From assembly GCA_050124835.1 (NCBI GenBank), contig JASFEM010000004.1:3588-67587 (forward strand): a stretch of 64,000 bases of DNA. Reading direction: 5' to 3'. Origin of the DNA: Syntrophobacterales bacterium (GTDB lineage Bacteria; Desulfobacterota; Syntrophobacteria; BM002). Position 1 is the first letter of the stretch, and each line of letters begins with the position of its first letter. Position numbers and translations under genes: made by a program. The notes under the pieces are model-generated. The model saw only the letters and a list, made by a program, of their open reading frames with translations. It had not been told where the DNA came from and searched no databases. Positions 19,051 through 62,930 of this stretch are shown here, in pieces.

Positions 19051-19083
19051 GATTTGAGATTGCAGATTGCAGATTGCGGAGTT
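19051..19083. repeat. heptamer tandem array (AGATTGC)x4 in the znuC-znuB intergenic spacer
   Basis: The sequence reads AGATTTG AGATTGC AGATTGC AGATTGC GG. Confidence 0.8.
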
Positions 19084-19099
19084 TAAAGGATTTTATCAT

Positions 19100-19921
19100 A
19101 TGCTGGAACTGCTTCAGTTTGAGTTCATGAGAAATGCTCTTTTAGCCGGTCTTCTGGCAAGCATCGCTTGTGGGATCATCGGCACCTTCGTTGTCGTGAA
19201 TCGTATAGTATTCCTTTCTGGCGGCATCGCCCATGCTGCCTATGGCGGCATCGGTCTCGCATTCTTTTTTGGACTGCCCTACGTGGTGGGGACCATGGGT
19301 TTTGCCCTTCTCGTCGCCGTGGTGATGGCAACTGTCACCCTAAAAGCGAGACATCGCTCTGACACGATTATCGGGGTGCTCTGGGCTGTGGGGATGGCAC
19401 TTGGAGTCATTCTGCTCGATCTAGCGCCTGGATACAATGTGGATTTGATGAGCTTTCTCTTCGGCAGCATACTCACCGTACCCACGGTTGATCTTTGGTT
19501 CATGCTAGCCTTGGACAGTGTGATTCTCTTTGCGGTAGGTTACTTCTACAATGATTTTCTAGCCCTCTCCTACGACGAGGATTTTGCACAAGTTAGGGGT
19601 GTCCGCGTCAGGCTGCTATATTTTCTCCTCCTGGCCATGGTCGCTCTTTCCGTGGTAATGCTCATTCGGATCGTCGGGCTAATTCTAGTTATAGCGCTGC
19701 TGACAATTCCACCTTACATCGCAGAGAAGTACTGTGGATCGCTGAAAATTATGATGTCCATCTCTTTCATCCTGAGCGCCTCTTTTACCCTGGTCGGGCT
19801 GTACCTTTCTTACAAGTTCAATCTGACCTCGGGAGCGACCATCATCATCGTGGCAGGGGCGTGTTTTTTTATTTCCTTACTGGTGGAGTTTTTGAAGTCA
19901 AAAAGGCCGTTTTCCGCATGA
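19100..19921 (+). CDS. znuB: zinc ABC transporter permease
   Basis: Hydrophobic multi-TM protein of about 270 aa in the ABC-3 family, in operon context with znuAC. The start is taken at MLELLQFEF. Confidence 0.75.
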   Translation: MLELLQFEFMRNALLAGLLASIACGIIGTFVVVNRIVFLSGGIAHAAYGGIGLAFFFGLPYVVGTMGFALLVAVVMATVTLKARHRSDTIIGVLWAVGMALGVILLDLAPGYNVDLMSFLFGSILTVPTVDLWFMLALDSVILFAVGYFYNDFLALSYDEDFAQVRGVRVRLLYFLLLAMVALSVVMLIRIVGLILVIALLTIPPYIAEKYCGSLKIMMSISFILSASFTLVGLYLSYKFNLTSGATIIIVAGACFFISLLVEFLKSKRPFSA

Positions 19922-19994
19922 GAAGTGGCGCGAAATTCAGTAGCATTAAGTATAAACAGTAAGTCGTTAGGAGGCACCTACCACAAACGTACAT

Positions 19995-20023
19995 GGCGCA
20001 AGGCACAAGGCACAAGGAGTCAG
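19995..20023. repeat. heptamer tandem array (AAGGCAC)x3-4
   Basis: The sequence reads GGCGCAA GGCACAA GGCACAA GGAGTCA. Confidence 0.7.
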
Positions 20024-20132
20024 AATTTAGAAGATAAGAGCTGAAACGAGTCTCTCCCCTGGCTACTGACTACTTGCCTTGATCTGGTCGACAGGTCTCG
20101 TCGCAGGGCCGACTACTGGATTCTTTGAAATA

Positions 20133-20164
20133 GCCTTACGCCCTGGGCCTTGAGCCTTATGCCC
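20133..20164. repeat. heptamer tandem array (GCCTTAN/CCTTRNG)x4, the same family as 56767-56801
   Basis: GCCTTACG CCCTGGG CCTTGAG CCTTATG CCC, near-identical in pattern to the array upstream of the gene at 56881. Confidence 0.7.
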
Positions 20165-20234
20165 AAGTTACAAAATATCTACCGTTTGGAACTCGAATTT
20201 CGCGCTCAACGATAGTGGCTAATAGGAGAATATT

Positions 20235-20666
20235 ATGTGCGATCAGTGTGACTACCTTGGTCTCCTTGAAAATAGTGGTTTGGGCCATACTGCCAATCGA
20301 CTCAGTGTCCTGGAAATCATCGGAAACAGTCCCCACCCGCTGAGTGCCCAAGAAATTATTGAAAGATTGAACCGAACCCAAGGGATAAACAGAGTTACCG
20401 TTTACCGTAACCTCGACCTTTTGGTGGAGAATAGACTGGTTGAGCGCATTAGCGCCGGTGACCGCTCCTTCCGTTACGGTCTGGCTCCAAATATTAATCA
20501 TGAACCTCATTCCCACTTTTATTGTACAGAATGTGGCGAAATGGAATGCATCAAACCCGAATTTGTTTATCTGAACATGGAATCGCTCGAGCGCACTTTT
20601 CTTGGATTGATTGAAAGAGTGGAAGTCCGCTTTGATGGCATCTGCGAGGATTGTCGAAGGGGGTAA
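20235..20666 (+). CDS. zur: Fur-family metalloregulator, likely zinc uptake regulator
   Basis: 143 aa with a winged-helix N-terminus, HxH/CxxC metal sites (HEPHSHFYCTECG ... CEDC), and a position immediately after znuACB. Confidence 0.7.
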   Translation: MCDQCDYLGLLENSGLGHTANRLSVLEIIGNSPHPLSAQEIIERLNRTQGINRVTVYRNLDLLVENRLVERISAGDRSFRYGLAPNINHEPHSHFYCTECGEMECIKPEFVYLNMESLERTFLGLIERVEVRFDGICEDCRRG

Positions 20667-20670
20667 CTTT

Positions 20671-20746
20671 AGATTGTGGATTGTAGATTGCGGATTGCAG
20701 ATTGTAGATTGTGGATTGCAGATTGTAGATTGTGGATTGCAGATGC
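20671..20746. repeat. long heptamer tandem array (RGATTGY)x about 11 between the convergent zur and GAF-HD-GYP genes
   Basis: AGATTGT GGATTGT AGATTGC GGATTGC AGATTGT AGATTGT GGATTGC ... Its translation on the minus strand produces the artefactual ICNPQSTICNPQST ORF. Confidence 0.85.
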
Positions 20747-20770
20747 GAAAGATAAAGGAAATTGTGCAGG

Positions 20771-22069
20771 TCAAATTAAAATTGGTGGGAAAGAAGGATC
20801 TTCATCGCAACCTGCATACTCTTCGTTATCAGGATAGCGATGCTGAATAGAGCGGAAAACATCCAAAGAGGAAAAGAAGACCTCGATGAGGTTGGGATCG
20901 AACTGTTGCCCTGCCCCTTGCTCCATGGTCGTAAGGATATCAGCCTCGGCCCAGGCTTCCTTATACGCCCTCTTGGTGGAGAGGGCGTCGTAAACGTCCG
21001 CAATAGCGACAATCCTACCGAAAAGAGGGATCTCATCGGCCCTTTTTCCGCGTGGCTCGAGTTGTTGCACAGAGAAACTTAACCCCGGTCCTGTGGCCGC
21101 CAGATCCACGTGGCCGGGATAACCTTTGCCATTCCACCACTCATGATGGTTAAGGGCAACTTCTGCTGCGGCCTCGTCAAAATCTGATTTCCGGTCAATG
21201 AAGAGTCTTGCCCCAAAAAAGGTGTGATGTTTCATAATCTCATATTCTTCTTCAGTGAGCCGTCCAGGTTTCTTCAATATTTGATCTGATATTGCAATCT
21301 TGCCCACATCGTGGAGCATGGCTGCCATACGCAGCACATCTCGCTTCGACCGGATCTCTTCCGCGGGAATGGAATTCTCTTCTGCCCAGCGCTCGTATAT
21401 CTCCACAGAATATGATGCAACCCGGTTGACGTGAGCGCCCGTCTCCTTGGGATCCCGCAACTCAGCCATTTTGATCATCCGTAGGATGAGGGTTCGGGTC
21501 ATCTGTGCTCTTTCCAGGGCCATGGTGGCCATGCTCGCAAAGTGATCCATCATCCTTTCGTCTTCTTTTGAAAATGGTATGATACCGCCCTGTTCATCTT
21601 GGGAGTTGATCACCTGGAGCACACCGATGACCTCCTCCCTCAGGGTTTTGAGTGGGATAGCCAATACCGAGTGCGTCTTATAGCCAGAAGTCTCATCAAA
21701 TTGTCGACTGAAGCTGTATGGGACTGCGTTGTCAAGGTTGTAGACATCGGGGATATTCAACGTCTTACCGGTGATGGCCGAATAACCTGCTATACTGCTC
21801 TCATCCGCTGGAATGGCAAAAGTGTTGTAGATGAGTTTTACTCCCCTGGGCAGCCTCTTTTGGAGGGTGGCATTCTGGGTGTAGGTGAAGTGCAGTTGAC
21901 TCTTGTCTCGGATATATATTGATCCCGCATCGGCGTTCACAACTCGGCGGGCCTCCGTAAGAATGTGCTCCATGAGGATATCGAGGTCTTTGACCTGATT
22001 CAGCTCCGTTCCCAGGTTGGTCAAAACCTCGAGTTTTTGTTTCTCAGTAAGCATCCTGCCACTCAACAA
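20771..22069 (-). CDS. GAF domain / HD-GYP domain c-di-GMP phosphodiesterase
   Basis: An N-terminal GAF-like region is followed by HD-GYP motifs HDVGKIAISD and HHEWWNGKGYPG. Confidence 0.8.
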   Translation of the reverse strand: MLSGRMLTEKQKLEVLTNLGTELNQVKDLDILMEHILTEARRVVNADAGSIYIRDKSQLHFTYTQNATLQKRLPRGVKLIYNTFAIPADESSIAGYSAITGKTLNIPDVYNLDNAVPYSFSRQFDETSGYKTHSVLAIPLKTLREEVIGVLQVINSQDEQGGIIPFSKEDERMMDHFASMATMALERAQMTRTLILRMIKMAELRDPKETGAHVNRVASYSVEIYERWAEENSIPAEEIRSKRDVLRMAAMLHDVGKIAISDQILKKPGRLTEEEYEIMKHHTFFGARLFIDRKSDFDEAAAEVALNHHEWWNGKGYPGHVDLAATGPGLSFSVQQLEPRGKRADEIPLFGRIVAIADVYDALSTKRAYKEAWAEADILTTMEQGAGQQFDPNLIEVFFSSLDVFRSIQHRYPDNEEYAGCDEDPSFPPILI

Positions 22070-22441
22070 AGAAAATAGATCAGTCCCCCAAGAAGACCCC
22101 TATGATGACCCCAAAGTGAAACCAGGCCATTGAGGCAGAAGTCTTCTCCAGTATATGATATGGCCTGTTTCCGAGCCACAATTAAACCCCAAGACTCAGC
22201 AGTATGATGCGGATTTGGGGCCAAAGATCTCCAATTTCCGCCTACATACGTGCAAGAATCATTCCCCGCCCTGAAGTGGAAAGAGAGTGTCCAAACAAAC
22301 ATGGTGCTAGCCATTTGCACTTCGCCCGCCAACGATATTGGTCGCTTTCAAAAAGGTAGCGAACTTACCAATCGTTCAGCGAAAAATTGATGGCGTCAAA
22401 ACAAGTTATCAGTCTGCTTGTGGTATGGCAGGTATGCAACA

Positions 22442-25954: not shown

Positions 25955-26098
25955 ATTGGAATGGTGGAATAATGGAACAAAGGAATGATGGGAAAAGAGC
26001 GAAAAACTTCACAACTCATGATGCTCAACCGCTCCGTACATTCGATCTACGTACTTAAACCCATTATTCCAACATTCCAGCATTCCAGCATTCCAATA
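25955..26098. repeat. inverted pair of 8-nt tandem arrays (NNNTGGAA)x4-5, about 70-nt spacer, (NNNTTCCA)x4, same family as 5559-5677
   Basis: Forward array ATTGGAA TGGTGGAA TAATGGAA CAAAGGAA TGATGGG at 25955-25992. Reverse array TTATTCCA ACATTCCA GCATTCCA GCATTCCA at 26063-26094. Confidence 0.75.
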
Positions 26099-30918: not shown

Positions 30919-31020
30919 GGTTATACCGGCCCAATGAATGGATCGGCTTATAGAACCTGATAAATTTAGGCAATTTCAGAGAAGGTGTTTCGCATGTTTT
31001 GGAAAACGGTTATAAACTTT

Positions 31021-31222
31021 GCTCCGCAACTGCTATTGAGGGCTGAGTCATTCCCTCCGCTTACGCTCAGTCTGCTACCTCGCGGGGGGAAGTCCTTCGG
31101 AGCGGAGGCAGAGGCAGCCTGAGCTGCGGATGTGCCAGCCTTTGCTGTTTTGCTTGGGTAGAGTTGTCTCCTTTAAAAGACAAAGGCTGGCCACATACGC
31201 CGCTTCGGGAATATGCCAGCCC
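31021..31222 (-). repeat. copy C (reverse orientation) of an approximately 200-bp dispersed element with terminal inverted repeats
   Basis: Reverse complement aligns to 44346-44552 over both ends (CTCCGC..TTGAGGGCTGAG.CATTCCC ... GGGAATATGCCAGCCC). This copy carries an internal 11-bp-stem hairpin GCCAGCCTTTG...CAAAGGCTGGC. Confidence 0.7.
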
Positions 31223-31330
31223 ACATCTATACGGAGTTAAGTACATAGGCGTTTTCTAAATATACGGCCCCGCTATTATCTTAGCGGTGTGGAATGAAGT
31301 GGCTGCAACATTGGGGTAAGGAGGAAAACC

Positions 31331-31583: not shown

Positions 31584-31630
31584 TTCCTGCACACGGTAGT
31601 CAGTTGGAGTAATGGAGCCCAACGACTTTA

Positions 31631-31738
31631 GATTTTAGAATGCAGATTTAAGATTTAAGAGCTTAGGACCTCATAGTAAGGAAAGCATGTAACCTCAATC
31701 TGGAATCTGCAATCTGAAGTCTGCAATCTGCAATCCTT
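31631..31738. repeat. composite element: forward heptamer array (AGATTNN)x4-5, 34-nt spacer, reverse array (CAATCTG)x6
   Basis: Forward AGATTTT AGAATGC AGATTTA AGATTTA at 31631-31663. Reverse CAATCTG GAATCTG CAATCTG AAGTCTG CAATCTG CAATCC at 31698-31738. It shares the left flank GTTGGAGTAATGGAG with the copy at 32684. Confidence 0.8.
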
Positions 31739-32248
31739 TAGGTCATCACTAGGGCGGTAATCGTTGACTTGTTTGAGCTCTAGTCATGACCCTTCCGCAT
31801 TACCAAGTCTCCGCCTTCCGCAGTGCCTCTTCTATCTCCTCGATCATCTTAAATCCATGGATCAATCCGTTCTCCGTTCACTTAAACGCCCTGCGCATTG
31901 CTGAAAATAGGAAAACCCCACCTCTGCGGCTCCATGCAGAGGTGGGGCGAATCCAGGGAGGTTTCAATAGGATAGAGTGTAAACGGGGAAAATTTATACC
32001 CTACCCGTCTGATAGTATAACCTGAAAATAAGGCAGAGGGAATATGGTGGTCCCGGAGTAAGCAAAAATGGAAGATTGATGCCCCATGAGTCCAAGTAGG
32101 TTAGCCTTTTCGGATAAAAACGGATCCCAAAAGAATCGCCACTAGTAAAAACTATCAAACGGAGTGAGAACAGGAGAATGAGGCTTCTTTACCTACTATT
32201 CTATGTAGTATATGGTTGTAAGAAAACGAAAGAGAGGAGGATACCGTT

Positions 32249-32584
32249 TTGGCATGGACCATCGACGATGCAGTTTCAGATAAGAATCTTAGAGATGCCA
32301 AGATTCATCTTCAAGAGGTGTCTTTTCGCCTCGGCGACCTTACTCCCAAAATTCGGATAAGACTTTTTAGATACCCAGGAGACAAAGAAGTCTACTTTGA
32401 GCAAAGCCACTTCATTCAAACACCCGGTCAAGAAAGTGTATTTTTTCCGGCGATGAAATCTGATAATAGTGAAGCCTATGCGTTGACCCATGCTGTTGAG
32501 GGTCTGACTCACACTTACGAAGCTGCCGTGGAACTGGGGCACGAGCCCTCTGACGTTTGGTTGGTGACTAATCCAGACTTCTGA
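32249..32584 (+). CDS. hypothetical protein
   Basis: 111-aa ORF with reasonable codon usage and no recognisable motifs. It lies between two repeat composites. Confidence 0.3.
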   Translation: MAWTIDDAVSDKNLRDAKIHLQEVSFRLGDLTPKIRIRLFRYPGDKEVYFEQSHFIQTPGQESVFFPAMKSDNSEAYALTHAVEGLTHTYEAAVELGHEPSDVWLVTNPDF

Positions 32585-32683
32585 GCAAAGAATCCAGAAC
32601 AGGGACCTTTCTTTGAGCTGCGTCCAGAGCTAGTCTTTCCTTGGGGCGAGAGTCTGTTGGTGTAATGGAGTAAGGATCATTTC

Positions 32684-32763
32684 AGATTTTAGAATGCAGA
32701 TTGCAGATTTTTTTAACGAATTAAAAACAGCAACTTTAAAACAAAATCTGAAATCTACAATCC
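32684..32763. repeat. second copy of the composite element: forward (AGATTNN)x4, AT-rich spacer, reverse (AAATCTR)x3
   Basis: AGATTTT AGAATGC AGATTGC AGATTTT ... AAATCTG AAATCTA CAATCC. The flanks GTAATGGAG upstream and CAATCCT downstream are shared with 31631-31738. Confidence 0.8.
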
Positions 32764-32775
32764 TCTGAGCTTTGG

Positions 32776-32811
32776 CCTGGCCCAAAGGACCAGGTTACCG
32801 GGACGCTAATG
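32776..32811 (+). promoter_or_regulatory. conserved leader motif CCTGGCCCAAAGGACCAGGTTACCGGGAC..AATGAG, shared with 56833-56880
   Basis: About 29 of 32 nt are identical between the two loci. It contains the imperfect palindrome TGGCCC-AAA-GGACCA. Here the AATGAG includes the annotated start codon of the radical SAM gene. Confidence 0.5.
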
Positions 32812-33816
32812 AGCTCTGAGAATGACCTAAAAGAGTGCACGCTTTGTGAGCACAGGTGCGGCGTGGACCGTGTGGCTGGCGAACTGGGCGTGTGCCGCAT
32901 CGCCGGTCCCATTGTCGCATCGAGAACCCTTCATCCAGCCCCTCCGGAAAGCTATACCATCTTCGTTGCGGGATGCAACTTCAAGTGCGTAGGCTGTCAA
33001 AATTGGACCATATCCCAGTTTCCTGATAATCGGATGCCCATAGAGGGTTATGTGGATCCCAAATCCCTCGCCCAGGAATCCGTAAAAATGCTGGAATCGA
33101 CCGCTGGAATTCTTATGGGCGCCGACAGGATATTCTTCTCTGGGGGTGAACCCACAATCCATCTTCCTTTCATAGAAGAGGTTGTAAAAGAGGCCAGACG
33201 GCTCAGGCCCTCTTTGAAGGTTAATTTTGATACCAATGGCTTTATGACGGAAGAATCTCTCAAAAGAATCTTGAATTTCACCACCTCCATGACTTTTGAC
33301 ATCAAAGCCTTCTATAACGACACCATGAGGGCTATTACCGGGGCCCCGGTTGAACCTGTCCTGAGAAATGCAGAAATAGTAGCTAGAACTGCCAGTGAAA
33401 AGCTGTGGGAATATAGAATAGTCGCAATACCCGAGGTAAACGAGGATGATATTGAACCTCTCTGCCGTTTCCTCGCCTCCATATCTAAAAATCTTCCTGT
33501 CTGTTTTCTCTCTTTCAGACCAAACTATGTTATGGATGAACACCCCGGGGCCACGCGGGAACTCATGAGGCAGTGCGTTGAGCAGGCCAGGCTTGCTGGT
33601 TTAAGAAATGTTACCTATGCCGGTACAACGAATATTCCGGGAAAGGTAGGAGTCCTCCAGAGAAAGGTGGAGGGGGATTATAGCAGAAGAGGGGCCAAGA
33701 TGGCCGCGTCTTACGCTCTTTCAAAAGGCTGTAATACACACCCCAGAGATTGCTCTAATTGTCCGTCTATGAGTACGTGCCCACTCAAGAAGTATTTACC
33801 CCTCAGGAGTTCCTAA
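32809..33816 (+). CDS. radical SAM enzyme (PFL-activase / AmmeMemoRadiSam-like)
   Basis: N-terminal Cys cluster CTLCEHRCGV...GVC, followed by the canonical CNFKCVGCQNW (CxxxCxxC) motif and a GGEPT glycine-rich SAM motif. Confidence 0.65.
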   Translation: MSSENDLKECTLCEHRCGVDRVAGELGVCRIAGPIVASRTLHPAPPESYTIFVAGCNFKCVGCQNWTISQFPDNRMPIEGYVDPKSLAQESVKMLESTAGILMGADRIFFSGGEPTIHLPFIEEVVKEARRLRPSLKVNFDTNGFMTEESLKRILNFTTSMTFDIKAFYNDTMRAITGAPVEPVLRNAEIVARTASEKLWEYRIVAIPEVNEDDIEPLCRFLASISKNLPVCFLSFRPNYVMDEHPGATRELMRQCVEQARLAGLRNVTYAGTTNIPGKVGVLQRKVEGDYSRRGAKMAASYALSKGCNTHPRDCSNCPSMSTCPLKKYLPLRSS

Positions 33817-33894
33817 CCGTCCGGATTCGCAAGTCAAGATTAGAAGGCGGCGCTGAGGCCGGTGGACTTTGGATCACGCGATGCAACTCTTGCC

Positions 33895-33927
33895 AAATGA
33901 CCATTGACTAATGACCAATGACTATCC
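33895..33927. repeat. heptamer tandem array (NAATGAC)x4 between the convergent radical SAM and glycoside hydrolase genes
   Basis: The sequence reads AAATGAC CATTGAC TAATGAC CAATGAC TATCC. Confidence 0.7.
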
Positions 33928-33946: not shown

Positions 33947-36622
33947 CTAGCTCCGGCCTCCTGATTGCTGGATGAGCTTGGCCACCAGCCCGGTCCAACC
34001 CGTCTGATGGCTGGCCCCTAAGCCGGCACCATTGTCACCGTGAAAATATTCGTTGAACAAGATCAGATCGCGCCATAAGGGATCTCGCTGGAATTTTTCC
34101 AGTCCACCGTAAATCGGACGATCACCCTCGCCATTTATAAGAAAGAGACTCATCAGACGCCGGGACAACTCGGTGGCCACCTCCCACAGAGTCATCCACT
34201 GACCAGACCCGGTGGGACATTCGATTTTCAGGTCATCACCATAGTAGTGATGGAATTTCTGCAAAGACTCAATAATTAGGTAATTCATGGGAAACCAGAT
34301 GGGACCCCTCCAGTTGGAGTTGCCTCCGAACAGACCGCTCTCAGACTCGGCTGGTTGGTAATTGATCGTGTGGGGTTGCCCGTCAACGTGGAAGCTGTAA
34401 GGATGCGTCCAGTGATACTTCGAAACAGAGCGAATGCCATAATCGGAGAGAAACTCATTTTCATCCAGCATTTTCCCCAAAACCCGCACGAGCCGGTCCT
34501 GGGTCAAGATGGCTAGCAGCCGACGCTCGCCAATACCTGGCGTTTCGATACAGGCCAGATTTCCGCTCAAGTGAGGGCGATTGCTGTAGAACCACTGCAT
34601 TCGCCTCTCAAAAACCGGCATGGTTTCCAGGATTTCCGGTTCGATGGTGTCCACTGCAAACAAGGGAAGCAGTCCCACCATGGAGCGCACCTTCAAAGCA
34701 ACGACCCGATCGTCGGGCAGATGAAGCGCGTCGTAGAAGAAGCCGTCCTCCTCATCCCAGAGACTGTGCCCATGACCACCACAGTCGGTCATTGCATGAG
34801 CTATACGCAGAAAGTGCTCGAAAAATTTTGTGGCCACATCCTGATAAACAGGGTTCTCCTTGGCCAATTCTAGAGCTATTTTCAGCATGGACAAGCAGAA
34901 CGCGCCCATCCAGGCAGTGCCATCTGCTTGGTCTATGTGTCCACCTGTGGGTAGCGCTTGGCTGCGATCAAAAACACTGACGTTATCCATGCCAAGAAAA
35001 CCGCCCTGGAAAACGTTTCTGCCGTCTTCATCTTTGCGGTTGACCCACCAGGTGAAATTCAAAAGCAATTTGTGAAAAACTGATTCCAAGAAGTCACGGT
35101 CCGGTCGTCCCCATTGCTTCCCGTCAATTTTGTACACTCTCCAGGCAGCCCAGGCCGGAACCGGCGGATTAACGTCGCCAAAGGACCATTCATAGGCCGG
35201 CAACTGCCCGTTGGGATGCATGTACCACTCTCGGGTAATCAACTCCAGCTGCCGCTTGGCGAAATCGGGATCAACCAGGGTCAGAGGGATGCAGTGAAAG
35301 GCCAGATCCCAAGTGGCGTACCAGGGGTACTCCCATTTGTCCGGCATGGAGATGATGTCGAAGTTAACGAGATGATCCCAATCATGGTTACGCCCGTGCA
35401 TGCGAGATCGTGGTGGTGTCGGTTCGCCAGGATCGCCCTTTAACCATTGTTCTATGTCGTAGTAATAAAGTTGCTTGGACCAGAGCATTCCGGCCAGGGC
35501 TTGGCGCTGCACCCGTTTCTCATCTTCACTTAGATTGTGGGGTTGCACGGCCGCGTAAAACTCATCCGCTTCAGCCAGTCGCTGCCCGAAGATTGCATCG
35601 AAGTTCTGAAATGGCTCTTTGTGCGCCATCTTTGACAATCGTAGTCGGAGAGCGACTGATCCCTCAGGAGTGATGGTTTCCTTAAAGAGCGCGGCCGTTT
35701 TCGTACCCGTCCGCTCAGGGTTGACTGCAGTGGTTTCAGCGTCGATCACATACCGATGAAATGCGTCTTTGACATAGGGATTAGGGTTGGGAAGACCGTA
35801 GAGCCGTTCTGCGTTGGTCTCATTTTCCGTGAAGATCAGCTCCTCCGCCCCTTCGGCATAGAGAAAGTAGGTCCCGGCTGCCGGGTGGTCAACCTCCACC
35901 GTGGATACACCCGCAGTCCTTTCCAGCAGGTGCAGCTGGGGTTTACCCGGTGTGTCGGCCATGGGGCCGTCCTCGTAGCCCCAACTCCAGGTGTTCCTGA
36001 ACCAGAATGTCGGCAAAATATGACACTCGGCCGGTTCAGGCCCACGATTAACCACGGTAATTTTTACCAAAATATCTTCTCGGTCCGCTTTGGCGTACTC
36101 AACAAACACATCAAAGTAGCGATTATCTCCAAAAATTCCAGTATCGAGGAGCTCGTATTCTAAATCGTGGTATCCGCGCCGCCCATTTTCGGCGACCAGT
36201 TCTGCATAAGGAAACTCGCCCTGCGGGTACTTGTAGAGCATTTTCATGTAGCTGTGGGTAGGGGTGCTGTCGAGATAGAAGTAATACTCTTTCACGTCCT
36301 CACCGTGATTGCCTTGCGAGCCAGTGAGCCCAAACAGTCGTTCTTTTAAGATCGGGTCGCGACCATTCCAGAGAGCCAGCCCGAAGCAAAGATGCTGATT
36401 TCGGTCACTGATCCCTGCCAGGCCGTCCTCACCCCAACGGTAGGCTTTGCTGTGGGCATGATCGTGCGGGAAAAAGTCCCAGGCTTCTCCGTCCTCACTG
36501 TAATCCTCTCGTACCGTTCCCCAGGAGCGCTCACTGATATATGGCCCCCATTTTTTCCAATTCGACTTGCGCTCGCGGTATTCGGTCAACCGCTTATGTT
36601 CATCTGTTTGCTTCATGGACAT
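33947..36622 (-). CDS. large (alpha/alpha)6-barrel glycoside hydrolase (clan GH-G, GH63 / glucosidase or mannosylglycerate-hydrolase-like)
   Basis: 891 aa with aromatic/acidic blocks ([46 protein letters not shown]) typical of GH63/GH37-type six-hairpin enzymes. Glucokinase is adjacent. Confidence 0.55.
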
Positions 36623-36705
36623 TCCCCTGCGACCCTGAACTGCCAGGAGACTTGCTTAAGAAATCGCAAATCATTTCGAAAAACACATTTATTAACCTCA
36701 TCACA

Positions 36706-36840
36706 GGTTGGGCTTGAGGGCTGAGGTATTCCCGACGCGGCGTATGTTGCCAGCCTATGCAAACTTGAATGGTTAGGCCGTCCTGCATGTTGCTGCAGAG
36801 GATGGCAATCCCGCGTCTCGCGGGACTCGGGCTGCCAGCT
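36706..36840 (+). repeat. copy B (truncated) of the approximately 200-bp dispersed element
   Basis: GGTTGGGCTTGAGGGCTGAGGTATTCCCGACGCGGCGTATGTTGCCAGCCTATGCAAACTTGAATGGTTAGGCCGT matches copy A over its first 130 nt or so. It lies in the 270-bp gap between the glycoside hydrolase start and the glucokinase stop. Confidence 0.7.
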
Positions 36841-36891
36841 GTCTGCTGTCTGCTTAGAAGTGCTCTATGCTCTCTGCCCCATGCCCTATGC

Positions 36892-44281: not shown

Positions 44282-44345
44282 TTCATAACCTCCAAATTGC
44301 CAATTAGAGAATTTCGCAATACGTACATAAATTTAACCTAGCATA

Positions 44346-44552
44346 GGTTGGGCTTGAGGGCTGAGTTATTCCCAAAGCGGCGTATGTTGTAAGCCTATGC
44401 AAGCTTCAATGGTTAGGCCGTGCTGCCTTTAGCTGCAGAGGCTGGCGACATCCGCAGCTCGGGCTGCCATTGCCTCCGGTCCGAAGCACTTCCCCCCGCA
44501 AGTGTAGCAGACCGAGCGTAAGCGGAGGGAATGGCTTAGCGCTCAAGCCTTT
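44346..44552 (+). repeat. copy A (full length) of the approximately 200-bp dispersed element with terminal inverted repeats
   Basis: 5-prime end GGTTGGGCTTGAGGGCTGAGTTATTCCC. 3-prime end GGGAATGGCTTAGCGCTCAAGCC. These are imperfect reverse complements of each other. Confidence 0.7.
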
Positions 44553-44587
44553 GAGCGGAGCTAAGACAAGAGGCATATTTTCGAATT

Positions 44588-49982: not shown

Positions 49983-50014
49983 GTGCTTAGTGCTTAGTGT
50001 TTAGTGGTTAGTTA
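49983..50014. repeat. heptamer tandem array (GCTTAGT/TTAGTGN)x4
   Basis: The sequence reads GTGCTTA GTGCTTA GTGTTTA GTGGTTA GTTA. Confidence 0.75.
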
Positions 50015-51074: not shown

Positions 51075-51263
51075 TCCCGGTCGCAGCGAGAGGATCACCA
51101 GGCACTGGGGGGCAACGCGGTGAAACGGCGAGACGGAGACGCGGCGAAAATGCCAGCAAATTGAGAGGGATTCAGTTTTGATGGCTTTTCCCCTGACTAC
51201 TGGATTCTGACTCCTGGCTCCTTCCGCTATGAAACTCTACCGACTGAATAAGACTGATTAAGA

Positions 51264-52085: not shown

Positions 52086-52092
52086 GAACCAT

Positions 52093-52153
52093 TAAGGAAT
52101 TGAGGGATTGGGGGATTACGGAATTAATCAGTCAAGACTCTAATTCCTTAATT
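52093..52153. repeat. degenerate 8-nt array (NNGGRATT)x4 plus short inverted partner
   Basis: AAGGAATT GAGGGATT GGGGGATT ACGGAATT, then AATTCCTTAATT. It lies between the hydrolase and fabH. Confidence 0.55.
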
Positions 52154-53175: not shown

Positions 53176-53250
53176 TAAACTCGCTCGCTTATCACGAAGC
53201 GGTTTATTCCTTATACCTTGTGCCTTGCACCTTATATCTAGTACCGTACT

Positions 53251-55404: not shown

Positions 55405-55420
55405 ACGAGGCATAAAGTTG

Positions 55421-55445
55421 GTAGTCAGTAGCCAGTAGCCAGCAG
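55421..55445. repeat. heptamer tandem array (GTAGYCA)x3
   Basis: GTAGTCA GTAGCCA GTAGCCA GCAG. A second GCTGCCT-type 7-nt periodicity follows at 55534-55570, overlapping the 3-prime end of the next ORF. Confidence 0.6.
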
Positions 55446-55533
55446 AAAAAACTTCTTACTGATCCCTTATCACTGATCCTAGTGACCATTTCTTTCTCTT
55501 TTCGCCGGGTCCCCGTGTCGCTGGGTCACCGCG

Positions 55534-56151
55534 TCACTGCCTTGGCTGCCTGCTGCTGGCTGCCATCTGCCTGCTCATAATTCCCTTCTCCGTCTGCTGA
55601 AATGCTTCGCTGCTCCTTTCTCGCAGCCGACTCAATCTTCTCTGGTATTCACCCTTCCTGGAATAATCGGCCATCACCAGCAGATTTGCCTGGGCAATCC
55701 GATAAGCCCCAAGATTTGCGGCCTGGAGGAGATCGCAGACAACCAGTAGGTCCGAAAGTAGGTGGCCCTTGCAATGTTTCCCCACCTGGGAGACCGAGCT
55801 CAGACAGTGTTGGGCCGCCTCCATGATCTTCATGGGGCATTCGATTGCCTCCTCCAGGGCAGCAATGACCTCCCTTTCTCCGTCTCCAGAGTTTCGTGCT
55901 TCAGCGAAACGCAAGTAGGCGGCTCCGTCTTCCTCACGAAGTTGGAGGAAAACTTTTGCCGAGGTCCTTACCTCCTCGAGCAAATCACCCCATTTTGCGT
56001 TAGCCTCAGAACCGTCTCGTTGACGCTGACCCTCCACCCGAACTATTTTCTCGAGAAGCGCAAGCCCCAAGACGGCACCATGGGCCGCTGCGGCGCCGCC
56101 TCCTGGCACAACCTCAGGTTTCGCAAGAGCTTCTAGGAACGTGTCTTCCAT
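55534..56151 (-). CDS. formiminotransferase-cyclodeaminase C-terminal domain (cyclodeaminase / methenyl-THF cyclohydrolase-like) protein
   Basis: The PGGGAAAAHGAVLGLALLEKIV glycine-rich motif is the hallmark of FTCD_C. The C-terminal 20 aa or so are encoded by a heptamer-periodic stretch and may be artefactual. Confidence 0.6.
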   Translation of the reverse strand: MEDTFLEALAKPEVVPGGGAAAAHGAVLGLALLEKIVRVEGQRQRDGSEANAKWGDLLEEVRTSAKVFLQLREEDGAAYLRFAEARNSGDGEREVIAALEEAIECPMKIMEAAQHCLSSVSQVGKHCKGHLLSDLLVVCDLLQAANLGAYRIAQANLLVMADYSRKGEYQRRLSRLRERSSEAFQQTEKGIMSRQMAASSRQPRQ

Positions 56152-56766
56152 AAACGGTGCCTCGGGGGGAAAACCCCACCTTGCTTTTTAAAGGATTCGG
56201 TTTGCGGTTCCCCTTGGGAACCATACTAACAGTTAATTCTTAGTGATGTAACTCCCGGCAAAACTTTTGACTCCGTGTTGCATTCTTCCAACACCTGAGG
56301 TGATTACCCAACATTTTTTCACCCGGCCTTGAGTGCAAGCTAGACGGCACCAAGTAGACTAAGTCATTAAAAAATCTCAATAATTTTCCAAAAACAGTAA
56401 TTGGCATGTTTCTTGTTTTAGGAGCAGGGTCGTTTATTGGCTTCTACCAGTATGGGTTTGGATTGAAACGAAAGGAAATGCAGATGAAGACTGACCTGCA
56501 ACATATATTGAATCCTTTGAAACTATGGAGCCGATTTGGTGGCAATTTCACCCAAGTCTTTAAGCTATACGAAACCTACTGCTGGAAACCTTTCTTGAGG
56601 AGATGGCTCAGCAAAGACTTGAAGGCTTAGGGTCAATTTGTGAATAACGTCCATAACATAGGAGTAGAGAATCCAGGTCCAGATAACTTGACTTTGAGCT
56701 GCCCCAAGGGGAAGGCACAGGGCTCAAGGTACCTGCTAAAATGAATCTTGAATACTCTTTTCTTCC

Positions 56767-56801
56767 CTGCGCCTTACGCCTTCAGCCTTATGCCTTGAAT
56801 C
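56767..56801. repeat. heptamer tandem array (GCCTTAN)x5
   Basis: CTGCGCC TTACGCC TTCAGCC TTATGCC TTGAATC. Same family as 20133-20164. Confidence 0.7.
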
Positions 56802-56832
56802 TCTTCTACCGGCAAAGCCATTGAAACTTGAC

Positions 56833-56880
56833 CTGGCCCAAAGGACCAGGTTTCCAGGACTACAATGAGGTGAGAGTATC
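56833..56880 (+). promoter_or_regulatory. second copy of the conserved leader motif CCTGGCCCAAAGGACCAGGTTTCCAGGAC..AATGAG
   Basis: Near-identical to 32776-32811. Here the AATGAG opens a 2-codon uORF (ATG AGG TGA) 16 nt upstream of the main ATG at 56881. Confidence 0.5.
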
Positions 56881-59259: not shown

Positions 59260-59759
59260 GAAAGGAGTCAGATCGGTAAAAAATAAACGGTGAACGGATC
59301 AGTCCATGGATTTAATACTGCTCGCTGCTCACCGTTTACCCCGTTTGATGCTTTAGATTATTTTTTGCTTATCTTTGTGCGCTTTGTGGTGAAACACTAG
59401 CGCATAGAGACAAAGCCGGTCTGGGCAACAGCCCCTCAAGACCTGACCCCGTTTTGTTGCTCGGCCTTCTCTTCTCTCCTTATTATCTGTATATCCTTCT
59501 GCGTCTCTTCTTGACCAAACGTTTTATAGCTTTTTCGTGTTTCAGCCTGCTTCTCTCGCCTTTACTCAAATAGTAACGATGTCTTTTTATGGAGGGTCCG
59601 ACATTCCTCTGAAAGTCTTTCTTGAGTCGCTTTAGCCTCTTTTCAAAAGTATGCAAGTCGTGCCACCTTTCGTTAATGCAAATCTAGGCAAAGGAATTAT
59701 GCTGGGACTGGTTTCTTCCGTCTGACTGAAAGATGCCCATAATAATGGTGTCGTCGCCT

Positions 59760-59960
59760 CTAAATCTTCGTCACGTTCTGTGCTGCGGGGCCCTTTTTGC
59801 CCTCTCCCACATCAAAGCTCACCCGCTCACCTTCAGAAAGAGTCTTAAAACCTTCCATGTTGATCTCCGAGTGGTGTACAAATATATCCCCACCCTCATC
59901 TTGCTCGATAAAGCCATAGCCTTTCTGTTCACTGAACCATTTAACCGTTCCTTCTGCCAT
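59760..59960 (-). CDS. cspA: cold-shock protein (CspA family)
   Basis: [31 protein letters not shown] carries the RNP1 and RNP2 motifs. An AGGAGG RBS is present. The ORF track extends 16 codons upstream, but the RBS supports the shorter start. Confidence 0.85.
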
Positions 59961-60565
59961 ACTCCTAACCTCCTTGAATGATGTCCTATTGTGATCTAAA
60001 TCGTCCATTTGCTGGACTTGCGAAACAAAACCAACCCTCGAATATAAACGGGGCCTCCATTAAAAACCGTTTTTGTTACAGGGGTACATTTCGCCACATG
60101 GGTGCGGAAATGAGAACCTCCAATCATCCAGCATCCGGGTTTCTAGTGGTGCAGCAGCAAAGGTGGGTTAGATCGCTGAAGTATTCCTTAAAAGTGGTGA
60201 ACAAAAGCAAAGAAATGTCGAGAATGACAAACCGCTCAATTTACTGCAGTAGCTAAAATCTTAGGGTATTAAAAATTCCCCGTCGATCATTTCCTCTGTA
60301 GTGACCGAATCGCACTTTTTGGGGCACTTCTTCCCACAATCTATAACTGCCTCAACCTCATCTTTTCACGGAGCCTAACAACAATCAGCCCAACAATCAA
60401 TACTAAATCGCATCTTGAGGATTGGGGACGTCCATTGATTTATTGATAGTTATCATCATCTCAACAGACGTCCCCCTTTTTCTCAGGAGAATCTGATTTG
60501 CGGTTGTGATATAAGTACAGTTGCTTTACTTCAGGCGAAAACTCAACAATTGAAGGGGAATCAAT

Positions 60566-61786
60566 ATGGATCTAGACCTCCTTTCTTCGTTAGCCGTTCA
60601 GAACGATACGAAAGTCTTATTACTGGTTTTAGACGGTGTGGGTGGTTTGGCTGGGCCGCAGGGAAAAACTTCACTGGAGGCTGCCCACACCCCGAACCTG
60701 GATGACCTGGCCAAATCCGGTGTCTGTGGGTTTCACGATCCAGTGGCCCCGGGGATCACACCAGGATCGGGACCGGCGCATATCGGACTATTCGGCTACG
60801 ACCCGTTCCGGTATCTCATCGGGCGGGGCGTGCTGGATACGGCTGGCACACCGTTCGTTTTCGCGAAGGGTGATCTGGCCAGTCGGCTGAACTTTGCTAC
60901 CCTTGCAGCCGATGGCACAATTTCCGACCGACGCGCGGGACGCATCCCCGATGAAGAGGGCCAGCGGGTGACCGATTTACTTGCCAAAGAGATAAAGGAA
61001 ATTGAAGGAGTGCAGGTGCTTCTTCAGCATGTCAAGGAGTATCGGGCGGCGGCTATTTTCCGGGGGAAGCGGCTGGATGGAGACCTCTGCGACAGCGATC
61101 CCCAAAAAGTCGGTTTGAAGCCGCTGGATGTAGCACCCACGCAGAAAAACCCGACGGTTGAGGCCAAGGAAGCTGCACGCCTCGCCAATACTTTTATCGG
61201 AAGGGCAAAAGAGATACTGGCAGGAGAAGCGAAGGCCAATTTCGTCATGATGCGTGGCTTCGATGTCTACGAACCCCTGCCGGATTTTTGTGAGCTTTAC
61301 AAGTGGCAGGCATGCGCGGTGGCTGGTTACCCAATGTACAAGGGCGTGGCCAAGTTGGCCGGTATGCGGGTGATCGAGGAGGGACAATCCTCGGTTGAGG
61401 AGGAGATCGATTTGGTTATACGCGAGCTACCAAACACTGACTTTCTTTTCCTCCATGTCAAGAAAACCGATTCCAAGGGTGAAGACGGAGACTTCGAGGG
61501 AAAGGTGGAGGTGATCGAGCATTTCGATCGGTTGTTGCCCCGCCTTGTGGATCTGAAACCGGATGTCTTTTGTGTCACCGGCGACCACTCTACGCCGTGC
61601 AGCCTTCGCAGCCACTCATGGCACCCGGTCCCCATCTGCATTGCTGCTGAGACTGCACGGGTGGACGCGTGCCAGACGTTTAGCGAGACCTCTTTTCTCA
61701 CCGGGGGACTGGGCCGCATTCACAGTACCGATGTGGTTCCGCTGCTATTAGCTCATGCAGAGCGACTGCAAAAATACGGAGCTTAA
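60566..61786 (+). CDS. apgM: cofactor-independent phosphoglycerate mutase, archaeal type
   Basis: The N-terminus KVLLLVLDGVGG matches the metalloenzyme superfamily. Length and internal blocks (GDHSTP) match ApgM. Confidence 0.7.
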   Translation: MDLDLLSSLAVQNDTKVLLLVLDGVGGLAGPQGKTSLEAAHTPNLDDLAKSGVCGFHDPVAPGITPGSGPAHIGLFGYDPFRYLIGRGVLDTAGTPFVFAKGDLASRLNFATLAADGTISDRRAGRIPDEEGQRVTDLLAKEIKEIEGVQVLLQHVKEYRAAAIFRGKRLDGDLCDSDPQKVGLKPLDVAPTQKNPTVEAKEAARLANTFIGRAKEILAGEAKANFVMMRGFDVYEPLPDFCELYKWQACAVAGYPMYKGVAKLAGMRVIEEGQSSVEEEIDLVIRELPNTDFLFLHVKKTDSKGEDGDFEGKVEVIEHFDRLLPRLVDLKPDVFCVTGDHSTPCSLRSHSWHPVPICIAAETARVDACQTFSETSFLTGGLGRIHSTDVVPLLLAHAERLQKYGA

Positions 61787-61825
61787 AGTAAAGATTAGAG
61801 GACTTATCTGTCCCCATAGGGGTTT

Positions 61826-61850
61826 CGGATTTTAGATTGCAGATTTTTCT
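61826..61850. repeat. heptamer array (AGATTNN)x3, same family as 19051 and 20671
   Basis: GGATTTT AGATTGC AGATTTT, 20 nt upstream of the next gene. Confidence 0.65.
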
Positions 61851-61869
61851 GAAGAAAGAAAGAGACTGA

Positions 61870-62724
61870 TTGACAATGAGACCAGTTTGCGATGTTTCCG
61901 CGCTGGACAGGCCAGAGGTACTGGAGCGTCTTTTTCATCCTCGGCAAGATGACGCCGAGAGCAAACCCGAGGGTGCCATAGATCTGTTTTTTGCGGTGGA
62001 AGAAACCGTGCATCTCGGTGCCCGATTTTTCCCGAGCGATCCGTCCGGATCCCATATTCTGTTTTTTCACGGAAACGGCGAGATTGCCAGCGATTACAAT
62101 ACCATTGCTCCAGCCTACAACAGCTACGGTATGAGCTTTCTTGTTGCTGATTATCGGGGTTACGGGCACAGTGGCGGCAATCCCACCGCCACTTCCTTGC
62201 TATCCGACGCCCACACTGTTTTCACCGAAACGAGAGGTTGGTTGGAGAGCCAGAATCGAACCGGACTCCTTATCGTAATGGGCAGGTCTCTGGGTAGCGT
62301 TTCTGCTATCGAGATAGCATCCAGCTATCAAGATGAAATCGATGCTCTTATTATCGACAGTGGGTTCGCCAGGACCATGCCCCTTCTCAATCGCCTCGGC
62401 GTGCCAACGGACAGCTTGGGCATTTCGGAAACGGATGGTTTTGCCAACTTTGGCAAGATGAGGGCTGTGGGCAAGCCCACCCTGATTATTCACGGCCAGA
62501 GGGACGAGATCATCCCCCCCGAAGAAGCTGACATTCTAATGGCAAATTCAGCAACCATGAGAAAGCAGCTTATGCTCGCGGCAGGTTGTGGCCACAACAA
62601 CATCTTGCTCCGTTGTAGAGATGCGTATTTTCAGACAATTAGCAATTTCGTCGAGATGGTTGAACGAATCAAAAAGAGAAACGCTATGAGCCGAGGCTTC
62701 GACAGGAGATATCCGAGAAGATAG
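61870..62724 (+). CDS. alpha/beta-fold hydrolase (S9/S33-like)
   Basis: Nucleophile elbow GRSLGS, HGxxD, and a His in GCGHNN. Confidence 0.6.
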   Translation: MTMRPVCDVSALDRPEVLERLFHPRQDDAESKPEGAIDLFFAVEETVHLGARFFPSDPSGSHILFFHGNGEIASDYNTIAPAYNSYGMSFLVADYRGYGHSGGNPTATSLLSDAHTVFTETRGWLESQNRTGLLIVMGRSLGSVSAIEIASSYQDEIDALIIDSGFARTMPLLNRLGVPTDSLGISETDGFANFGKMRAVGKPTLIIHGQRDEIIPPEEADILMANSATMRKQLMLAAGCGHNNILLRCRDAYFQTISNFVEMVERIKKRNAMSRGFDRRYPRR

Positions 62725-62899
62725 CAGGCAGCGGACAGCGGGCACTAGGCACTCTGGTAATTGCGGATTTTGAAATTATCAGGCGTGATATCCGATCTCT
62801 GTTATCTGTCCTCTAGTCTCCGTCTCGCCGTTTCTCCGCGCCTGCCCGCCATCGGCTTCGCCTTCAGGCGAGGCGGGCGGGTCCCCGCGTCGTCCTCCT

Positions 62900-62930
62900 G
62901 TGCCTAGTCCCTAGTGTTTAGTGCTAGTAA
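62900..62930. repeat. heptamer array (YCTAGTN)x4
   Basis: GTGCCTA GTCCCTA GTGTTTA GTGCTAG. A related 2-unit GCACTAG GCACTCT lies at 62737-62752. A GC-rich hairpin at about 62825-62885 precedes it. Confidence 0.6.

Follow-up and report, generated by a model that had tools for sequence, protein, structure and literature searches.

The intergenic DNA of contig JASFEM010000004.1, from the Syntrophobacterales bacterium assembly GCA_050124835.1, carries many short tandem arrays of 7-nt units, which raises the question of what such arrays are and how they came to be there. We analysed a 64,000-nt stretch of this contig (positions 3,588 to 67,587; hereafter the window, whose own coordinates are used throughout). 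An earlier note on the same DNA had likened the arrays to the short tandemly repeated repetitive (STRR) heptamers described from heterocystous cyanobacteria, had placed the host among non-cyanobacterial anaerobes, and had argued that a structural or regulatory role, or some specific means of spreading, is more likely than slippage noise. In the analysis reported here, the window arrays are probably the arms, or decayed solo arms, of miniature elements that lack an open reading frame (ORF) and are related to cassettes carrying a PF05635 gene, with slippage altering their copy number.

Arrays were detected with Tandem Repeats Finder and with a separate period scan, scored at a strict and a lenient level against dinucleotide shuffles. 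At period 7, 8 arrays were found against 0.3 in shuffles at the strict level and 21 against 1.3 at the lenient level; the corresponding figures at period 8 were 4 against 0.15 and 10 against 1.3. The excess is limited to these two periods, the remainder lying at background save for period 14, which is 2 × 7, and the arrays are thus far more frequent than shuffled sequence would give. All of the heptamer arrays previously listed were recovered by these methods at, or a few bases from, their expected positions, although some proved weak (~2.5 units at 61826; ~3 degenerate units at 62737 and 43265). The list was correct but incomplete: further heptamers lie at 31697-31735, 32743-32762, 36831-36891, 51193-51222 and 53204-53233, and the period-8 arrays (TGGAATRN, the TCTCCGYS type and ATTGAGGG) had been overlooked. 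The statement that almost every longer intergenic region carries an array was too strong, the proportion being ~44% of intergenic regions of 100-400 nt in the window and its relatives. The arrays do occupy operon interiors (znuC-znuB, dppC-dppD), the gaps separating convergent genes and positions upstream of genes, and in form the arrays are indeed STRR-like, being intergenic tandem heptamers of several families. About 29 of the 31 window arrays are intergenic, although 82% of the window is coding. One array seemingly inside an ORF (20157-20774) actually lies downstream of an opposite-strand Fur/Zur gene.

An array repeats its 7- or 8-nt unit 3-11 times in tandem; the unit has a conserved core of 4-6 nt and 1-3 variable positions, unit match levels are 73-100%, and at least ten unrelated unit families occur within the 64 kb (Table 1). 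Inverted pairing was absent from the earlier picture: arrays on opposite strands face one another at 19992/20133, 31624/31697, 32679/32743 and 62716/62900 and in both TGGAATRN pairs (5560/5642 and 25957/26061). The inverted pairs enclose 35-115 nt and fold as helices of 5-6 bp broken by mismatches of 1-2 nt. Their stability is far beyond that of shuffled sequence (hairpin z-scores of -4.7, -8.0 and -7.5; arm duplexes of -29 to -39 kcal/mol against -11 to -16 kcal/mol), with stems of ~20 bp or longer. Searches of the window and 13 element-bearing loci against Rfam, at gathering and E-value thresholds, returned only sub-threshold, miRNA-like hairpin matches. In a terminator/promoter scan of the window the arrays did not coincide with terminator-like sites, which were not enriched, and neither tRNA genes nor rRNA were found there.

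The host is a non-cyanobacterial anaerobe, as had been supposed. Its gene content includes a 2-oxoacid:ferredoxin oxidoreductase operon, NADPH-dependent FeS flavoproteins and numerous sensor kinases and HD-GYP proteins. The window's coding DNA shares 96-98% identity with the closed metagenome-assembled genome (MAG) CP070735.1, ‘Deltaproteobacteria bacterium bin40’ (L008; hereafter bin40), and ZnuB relatives are labelled Desulfobacterales, Syntrophobacteria or Desulfococcaceae. The same strain was found in Joint Genome Institute metagenomes, and no indels were seen among the same-strain contigs (L001-L004; 99.97% identity). Distribution was surveyed at 80 ZnuB-anchored loci of 20 kb from GTDB species, each genome being sampled at this locus. 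The dozen genomes nearest the window have a period-7 density of 2.4-9.5 per 10 kb, and the density is high as well in Eth-SRB2, Desulfococcaceae HSG8 and one Desulfatirhabdium MAG; at most other Desulfobacterales loci, that of the fairly close CP070692 included, it is ~0-1 per 10 kb. Since relatives share this density, the arrays are a lineage-level trait and not the result of a duplication local to the window. In 237 kb of clade DNA we counted 116 arrays, 90% of them intergenic, at densities of 4.5/kb between convergent, 2.1/kb between co-directional and 1.4/kb between divergent genes. A strand bias relative to genes, which the earlier note had considered, was not found for the main family in this DNA (6 sense, 8 antisense). 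Very long heptamer arrays also occur in cultured or enriched Desulfobacterales: Desulfonema magnum (NZ_CP061800.1; L020, 10831-10944), an organism that would lend itself to experiments, has 16 GTGATTT units directly after znuB, and Eth-SRB2 (L018, 20023-20316) has a heptamer array of 42 units.

Comparison of the window with bin40 reveals rapid turnover. Genes align without indels at 96-98% identity but the intergenic regions do not, and array blocks of 130-200 nt are present, absent or swapped for another family. The yidD-znuA spacer contains a ~200-nt block with arrays in bin40 only. Between znuC and znuB the window has a solo array of three AGATTGC units, whereas bin40 has three GGATTGC units followed by a ~100-nt core and an inverted arm; between znuB and zur a CAAGGCA/GCCTTNN pair in the window corresponds to a GTTATTA/GTATAAC pair in bin40. 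Unit comparison between strains thus uncovers whole blocks gained, lost and replaced as well as units changed in concert, as every unit of one znuC-znuB array differs from its counterpart (AGATTGC against GGATTGC). Genomes outside the clade all have a znuC-znuB junction of 1-2 nt; every clade member has one of 53-480 nt with arrays, usually including, right behind the znuC stop codon, a GATT-family array whose units vary from species to species. Arrays therefore persist at sites and are homogenised by slippage-type events, and they are also gained, lost and replaced.

Sharing of units and arms between sites points to dispersal in addition to slippage. Across loci and species, identical canonical-unit pairs between arrays number 93 against 9±3 expected, ten-fold over chance; sharing was counted by exact canonical units, as one-mismatch single-linkage clustering chained all units together and was dropped. 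Whole arms, unit variants included, recur in distant genomes. A distant Desulfobacterales MAG (L055) has, in its znuC-znuB spacer, a copy of the TGGAATRN arm at 5560 that includes the flanking small hairpin and the order of unit variants, with 89% identity over 54 nt. Families and arm variants thus cross loci and taxa, which is not the pattern of an origin in place at each locus, and on these sequence matches the arms are dispersed and were not formed de novo. Of the earlier contention that a spreading mechanism, not slippage noise, lies behind the arrays, the spreading holds, but slippage-type copy change is seen as well. Within units, variation sits in adjacent positions (longest invariant run 3.5 against 2.75±0.16, in a test that ignores block duplication). 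CpG decay was considered as a general cause of the variable positions; it fits GATTGYR but not the overall ratio of transitions to transversions (255:369).

The TGGAATRN family connects such elements with a protein. A metagenome scan with a four-unit TGGAATRN pattern gave at least 120 loci, and 89 of those listed have both arms within 400 nt. Among the matches listed, two-armed copies carry 3-4 units per arm and measure 107 nt at the median, and copies share the unit consensus TGGAATRN and inner ends TGGG/CCCA around highly variable cores; folding of the 89 showed no RNA strand asymmetry (G-U/A-C; p 0.17). These elements, two of which lie in the window, are short (under ~500 nt), non-coding and multicopy, with inverted ends. 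Small hairpins recur as outer modules beside the arms (L144, L147, L161, L188, L213, L222, L223 and others; modules A to C in Table 1), and these suggest that the complete element is asymmetric and larger than its arms. In the copies L148, L159, L198 and the L236 group, and in part in L235, L199 and L193, the core is an ORF of 134-136 aa. This ORF matches PF05635 (E 1e-18), TIGR02436 ‘four helix bundle protein’ and PDB entry 2GSC (XCC0516, five chains; E 4e-8), and it is the only ORF found in the long forms; PF05635 is not a known transposase family. Databases contain more than 2000 relatives of this subfamily, most of them from very short contigs; those that bear a name are Desulfobacterales. 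P0221, present on 22 contigs, represents a single locus recurring in many samples and is no evidence of several insertion sites. An octamer scan of viral contigs returned mostly perfect simple sequence repeats (SSRs) of giant-virus or eukaryote-like contigs, and one related element (L111).

The association extends to PF05635 genes in at least six phyla. A tblastn search of plasmids found such genes chiefly in Nostoc, Calothrix, other cyanobacteria and Riemerella. In a set of 12 plasmid genes from seven cyanobacterial genera, Riemerella and Gemmatirosa, 11 have 7/8-nt arrays on both sides and one on a single side; 10 of the 11 two-sided pairs are inverted, and distances of at most 160 nt separate 24 of the 28 arrays from the ORF ends (p 1e-13). 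The arm units are lineage-specific (GGGTGTA, AGGGAAC, AAAAGGG, GGTTTAA, TTAGCTG and AAGGCAG; at period 8, GGAGA and GAGGGCAG). Within the ZnuB-anchored set a broader hidden Markov model located a PF05635 ORF in Eth-SRB2 (L018), between the 42-unit array and another array, and five of five further homologues are bracketed (Desulfobacterales, Thermodesulfobacteriota, a ‘Deltaproteobacteria’ MAG, Cloacimonetes and Sumerlaeota). The arms of the gene in a Desulfobacterales MAG (L258), ATGACCA/ATGATAA, belong to the same family as the window arrays at 33891 and 43260 (AATGACC). An unselected IMG/VR sample of 22 loci, found with a narrower PF05635 alignment because the wide one was too divergent, has arrays on both sides at 15 loci (nearly all inverted), on one side at 5 and on neither at 2, with a density of 3.3/kb in the flanks against 0.29/kb outside. 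Array-built arms thus accompany ~40 of the ~45 PF05635 genes examined, most of which are bracketed, usually in inverted orientation, and the arms can form duplexes of 20-36 bp (-28 to -88 kcal/mol). ORF and arm co-diverge, in that units no more than one mismatch apart are seen in 80% of pairs whose proteins are at least 70% identical and in 2-3% of pairs below 50% identity. The gene is co-oriented with both neighbours at 14 of 17 loci, often within operons. A published generalisation of the heptamer-array/PF05635 link was not found in the papers examined, and a full-text search with arm sequences gave no relevant match; the association is strong and apparently undescribed. Individual cassettes sit between cheW and cheB (L259), between moxR and a DUF58 gene (L262) and between methylthioadenosine phosphorylase and deaminase genes (L236). 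On a Pseudanabaena galeata plasmid (NZ_CP112875.1, 45577-47321; L254) the PF05635 gene, with (TAAAAGC)14 and (AAAAGCC)9 flanks, stands between cas6 and cas4 of a CRISPR-cas operon.

We propose that the arrays belong to small palindromic dispersed elements in which two arms of 7/8-nt units are inverted around a variable core. The full-length cassette, of ~0.5 kb, carries a PF05635 gene between arms of the same kind. As this family is that of the ‘23S rRNA intervening-sequence protein’ (a four-helix-bundle protein forming a pentameric toroid, and kin of Avd, the accessory protein of diversity-generating retroelements (DGRs)), the cassette would be the same kind of element as the ORF-bearing 23S rRNA intervening sequence (IVS). 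Elements would settle in intergenic DNA and also in operon junctions, where they could be tolerated because their transcribed arms pair into a long stem, which may be processed by RNase III, by analogy with the IVS, or plainly read through. Replication slippage would then expand, contract and homogenise the arms. For TGGAATRN and AATGACC the link to PF05635 cassettes is direct. Such elements would be selfish or neutral rather than regulatory; the conserved regulatory role envisaged earlier is not favoured by strain-level gain, loss and replacement, by the 6:8 strand ratio or by the lack of strand asymmetry in folding.

Several observations weigh against this proposal. Neither the window nor 237 kb of DNA from close relatives yielded a PF05635 ORF; we regard the window copies as ORF-less derivatives rather than full cassette members because the ORF is lacking there and present in the TGGAATRN and AATGACC-type long forms. 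Membership of the other window families (AGATTGC, GCCTTAN, GTGCTTA and AGTAGCC) would follow from shared architecture. Many window arrays are solo, with no inverted partner, and the window arms have periodic mismatches where the stems around most PF05635 ORFs are near-perfect. Some PF05635 genes (L018, L254) have direct rather than inverted arrays, an arrangement that would be equally compatible with the gene having entered an array that was already there. Target-site duplications were found neither between filled and empty sites nor around aligned copies, no transposase or defined element ends were detected, and the non-array cores of strain-specific insertions had no repeat copies in the sampled DNA. 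Arrays at znuC-znuB and yidD-znuA are kept across species whose Znu orthologues are only ~60-86% identical, and this persistence could reflect a selected host function. Finally, the association sample is modest at ~45 genes, and one of its sources is a collection of ‘viral’ contigs.

A broader generalisation can be offered tentatively. Hepta- and octamer arrays at large, STRRs included, might be the cis arms of widespread mobile cassettes, with the pentameric PF05635 protein as trans partner recognising the unit of its own lineage, plausibly one unit per subunit. ORF-less and solo arrays could then be maintained or mobilised in trans, possibly, by analogy with Avd and DGRs, via an RNA intermediate released by RNase III.

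Comparison with known repeats places the window within a familiar class and sets some of its features apart. Heptamers outside cyanobacteria are not the novelty that had been implied. Xanthomonas has ~180 GGGAATC arrays, with 70-75 convergent pairs in Xcc/Xac, which are mostly transcribed and keep their positions between related species while varying in length (PMC4692102); TAACTGA repeats are common to Beggiatoaceae, cyanobacteria and Bacteroidetes (PMC4679880); and Geobacter metallireducens has tandem units of 7 and 8 nt (PMC2700814). Tandem heptamers are the commonest intergenic periodic repeat of prokaryotes in a survey of ~7000 genomes, which found ‘no clear clue’ to their function (PMC6344855), and they are the most frequent class of long SSR in many bacteria (as relayed in PMC4679880 and PMC4692102; PMC6344855). 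Long SSRs of the 5-11 nt class have head-to-tail units and exceed the length expected by chance in the genome (Mrazek et al. 2007, as relayed in PMC4679880), a description that covers the window arrays. The STRRs and heptameric SSRs of Xanthomonas, Nostoc and Beggiatoaceae resemble the window arrays in being intergenic, in comprising several families with frequent inverted pairs, and in combining conserved positions with variable lengths. They differ in phylum and unit; the window units are more degenerate, octamers occur beside them, and the host is a Desulfobacterales-like MAG lineage rather than a heterocystous cyanobacterium. AGATTGC, GCCTTAN, AATGACC and the other window units are presumably not canonical STRR units. 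Earlier explanations of STRRs and heptamers (G-quadruplexes, translational control, slippage) involve no protein-coding partner, whereas the plasmid PF05635 genes of Nostoc, Calothrix and other cyanobacteria are bracketed by STRR-like arrays.

In G. metallireducens each site comprises 3-5 tandem octa- or heptanucleotides, and the sites are paired across the two strands with a varying distance between them (Aklujkar et al. 2009, PMC2700814). Their units are GTTGCTYN, TCTCCGTS[Y] and MTYCTGA (classes 1-3), with GGACCGG x4 elements in addition; they are intergenic, proB-proA included, and were read there, as a hypothesis, as IHF/HU sites. The opposite-strand pairs of the window share this design, the class-2 consensus is that of the window blocks 62817-62850, 51118-51147 and 55502-55540, and MTYCTGA-like arrays occur in relatives L055, L005 and L068. 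The class-1 consensus was not seen in the window, most unit families differ, and the Geobacter study made no link to PF05635 or the IVS.

The 23S IVS of Coxiella burnetii contains an S23p (PF05635) ORF between terminal inverted repeats that form a 28-bp stem cut by RNase III, together with two or three tandem GACAGAT heptamers whose number varies between strains (PMC4990558). The Xanthomonas campestris S23p homologue is a pentameric toroid (Lin et al. 2006, as cited in PMC4990558), and PF05635 resembles the DGR protein Avd (PMC10053308). Like the window elements, the IVS has inverted termini pairing into a long stem and tandem heptamers at its ends, and lies within a host transcription unit; its loop carries the PF05635 gene, as do the long forms of TGGAATRN, AATGACC-type and other families. 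It sits in an rRNA helix, whereas the window elements occupy intergenic DNA of protein-coding operons, are ORF-less and 60-300 nt long, have mismatched stems, and occur in many copies and unit families per genome. MITEs (miniature inverted-repeat transposable elements), REPINs and BOX elements are likewise small, non-coding, dispersed hairpins with inverted ends, found in operons too and present or absent between strains. They resemble the TGGAATRN family further in having long ORF-bearing and many short ORF-less forms and in combining modules (here the outer hairpins A/B/C). Here, however, a partner transposase or REP-associated tyrosine transposase (RAYT) is absent, and the ORF of the long forms encodes a four-helix-bundle protein; the arms are tandem 7/8-nt units in place of unique terminal inverted repeats; and the target-site duplication and cognate transposase of a MITE were not found for the TGGAATRN elements.

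Three other explanations were weighed. The arrays are unlikely to be operator-like sites for abundant DNA-binding proteins (global regulators or nucleoid proteins) that act in chromosome organisation or gene control with one dimer or subunit per 7-8-bp unit. One binder per repeat unit is the mode of the omega repressor on 7-bp heptads and of MetJ on 8-bp metboxes, and units of a conserved core and a variable spacer would suit it. So would persistence at the same intergenic sites across species, the absence of RNA strand asymmetry, which suits a DNA-level feature, and the close fit to the Geobacter description in period, units per arm, inverted pairing at variable distance and class-2 consensus (PMC2700814). 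Against this, the 64 kb contain ten or more unrelated unit families, each of which would need a binder of its own; strains whose genes are 96-98% identical have gained arrays, lost them or exchanged them for other families; arrays are densest at convergent ends and rarest in divergent promoter regions; and no binding is known. Were the binder the pentameric PF05635 protein, this explanation would merge with the cassette proposal.

Quite improbable, and as a sole explanation largely refuted already, is the view that the arrays are plain long SSRs made in place by slippage of a replisome with a 7-nt preference, with neither dispersal nor function. In-place slippage with an intrinsic 7-nt preference was reportedly proposed by Mrazek et al. 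2007. Intergenic confinement would then follow from the fact that neither 7 nor 8 is divisible by 3, and the concerted shifts of copy number and unit identity at one site (AGATTGC, GGATTGC and AGATTGT), the 21-nt higher-order structure of array 20666-20744, typical of block duplication, the prevalence of heptamers among long SSRs in many bacteria and the lack of strand bias are all in line with it. It does not account for unit families shared by unrelated loci and species, for arms that recur in distant genomes with the same variant order and flanks, for inverted pairs, for the invariant core of the units (subject to the caveat on block duplication given above), for the tight association with one protein family, or for the near absence of arrays from the closely related genome L006.

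REP/BIME elements (repetitive extragenic palindromes and bacterial interspersed mosaic elements) in E. coli operons set differential expression. A comparable role here as RNA cis-elements in leaders and operon spacers, whether as binding sites of RNA-binding proteins (S1, Csp, CsrA-type or others) or as stability or processing hairpins, is very improbable: arrays do lie a few to tens of bases from starts or fill spacers (znuC-znuB, dppC-dppD, 52091, 53204), an RNA-level role was suggested for the Beggiatoaceae repeats (PMC4679880), most Xanthomonas arrays are transcribed (PMC4692102) and long stems would be RNase III substrates, cf. the IVS (PMC4990558), but the main family has no orientation preference, folding has no strand asymmetry, density peaks between convergent genes, the arrays are not terminator-like and have no Rfam match, and strain-level family replacement speaks against a sequence-specific regulon.

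What the analysis adds is the inverted-pair architecture, the extreme strain-level turnover, the identity with the Geobacter ‘paired sites’ and the association with PF05635; heptamers in a non-cyanobacterium are in themselves known and widespread. Tandem heptamers have been catalogued for more than 30 years, as STRRs, Xanthomonas GGGAATC, Beggiatoaceae TAACTGA and Geobacter paired sites. If they are the arms of PF05635 cassettes, two orphan phenomena would account for each other, and arrays would mark a selfish element rather than candidate regulons. Insertions in operons (znu, dpp, cas6-cas4, cheW-cheB) would then be natural experiments on mRNA processing, and a defined protein/repeat pair would be at hand for binding and mobility assays. 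In practical terms, the elements break up metagenome assemblies and lead annotators to false ORFs across arrays.

Table 1. Arrays, paired elements and outer modules of the window and of the TGGAATRN family.
Positions	Strand	Feature	Context or composition	Further observations
~5543-5556		Small outer hairpin GGGGCTTTGCCCC	Adjoins TGGAATRN element 5560-5676	
5560-5676		ORF-less TGGAATRN octamer hairpin element	dppC/dppD spacer; arm 5560-5597, core 5598-5641, inverted arm 5642-5676	Fold -37.9 kcal/mol, z -4.7
19049-19080	+	Solo AGATTGC heptamer array	Fills znuC-znuB spacer	
19992-20163		Inverted heptamer pair CAAGGCA (19992-20017) / GCCTTNN (20133-20163)	Between znuB and zur	Arm duplex -29.3 kcal/mol (shuffled -16.1)
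20666-20744	+	GATTGYR array, eleven units	Between convergent zur and GAF-HD genes	Period 7, 10.7 copies; higher-order 21-nt period at 94% (Tandem Repeats Finder)
25957-26095		TGGAATRN octamer hairpin element, second copy	Divergent intergenic region; arms 25957-25985, 26061-26095	Fold -52.4 kcal/mol, z -8.0
31624-31735		Inverted heptamer pair AGATTNN (31624-31660) / NNAATCT (31697-31735)		~95 nt in common with pair at 32679
32679-32762		Inverted heptamer pair AGATTGC (32679-32709) / AAATCTR (32743-32762)	Upstream of radical-SAM gene	Copy of the common ~95 nt at 32640-32710
33891-33922	+	AATGACC heptamer array	Between convergent genes	
36831-36891	+	Adjoining heptamer arrays GCTGTCT (36831-36854) and TGCYCTA (36861-36891)		Both families also in L005, L008, L012
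43260-43283	+	GTCATTG array, weak	Reverse complement of AATGACC family	
49983-50012	+	GTGCTTA heptamer array, 4.3 units		88% identity to 62899-62923
51116-51222	+	Composite	GC-rich period-8 block CGGNGANN (51116-51150), then CTGACTA/CTGGATT heptamers (51193-51222)	Period-8 block 96% complementary to 62816-62840; four copies of the GC-rich block (three in window, one in bin40)
52091-52126	+	ATTGAGGG octamer array	85-nt spacer, co-directional genes	
53204-53233	+	CCTTRYR heptamer array	75-nt spacer, co-directional genes	
55416-55571		Cluster	Between convergent genes; AGTAGCC heptamers 55416-55445, period-8 TCNCCGNG 55502-55540, weak GCTGCCN heptamers 55545-55571	
56765-56796	+	GCCTTAN heptamer array	Upstream of conserved 65-nt leader and phosphoesterase gene	
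61820-61845	+	Short AGATTGC array, ~2.5 units	83-nt spacer	
62716-62923		Nested cluster	Convergent genes; outer inverted pair AGGCACT (62716-62753) / AGTGCCT (62900-62923)	
62787-62850		Interior of nested cluster	GATMTCY heptamers 62787-62814; period-8 TCTCCGYS block 62817-62850	Block sequence TCTCCGTC TCGCCGTT TCTCCGCG; reverse complement at 51118-51147; related block 55502-55540
		Outer module A GTTAGTTCGCTTCGCTCACAAT; outer module B TTAGGGGCTTCGCCCCAAT	One side of TGGAATRN arms	
		Outer module C, T-run and GAGGCC..GGCCTC hairpin	Other side of TGGAATRN arms	

The window holds further features besides the arrays. A near-consensus sigma-70 promoter (17261-17289; TTGACA-17-CATAAT) upstream of znuA overlaps the palindrome TGCAATTCAGTTGCA and is probably under Zur control; the yidD-znuA array block of bin40 is positioned upstream of it. 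A conserved 65-nt leader (32759-32823 and 56815-56879), which contains the hairpin CCTGGCCCAAAGGACCAGG followed by GGAC..AATGAG, lies directly upstream of the start codons of the radical-SAM and metallophosphoesterase genes. A heptamer array precedes both copies, its family differing between the two, and the leader, which has no Rfam match, could be either a promoter module or an RNA that regulates in cis. The ORF at 33947-36622 (minus strand, 891 aa) matched nothing in NCBIfam at E ≤ 0.001. Another dispersed repeat, ~130-200 nt long, is present in three copies that are 84-85% identical and partly in opposite orientation (31017-31227, 36673-36806 and 44311-44565); it has internal GC-rich palindromic parts and no short tandem units, and one copy gives rise to a spurious 105-aa ORF (36600-36917). 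Within ~500 nt that hold no convincing ORF (31740-32250), a strong terminator-like hairpin on the minus strand (31915-31948; 13 pairs, 9 of them G-C, then a T-run) may be where a small RNA gene of that strand ends. Lastly, a 35-nt inverted repeat (31849-31883 / 59281-59315), 83% complementary over a distance of 27 kb, may represent a further small dispersed family.

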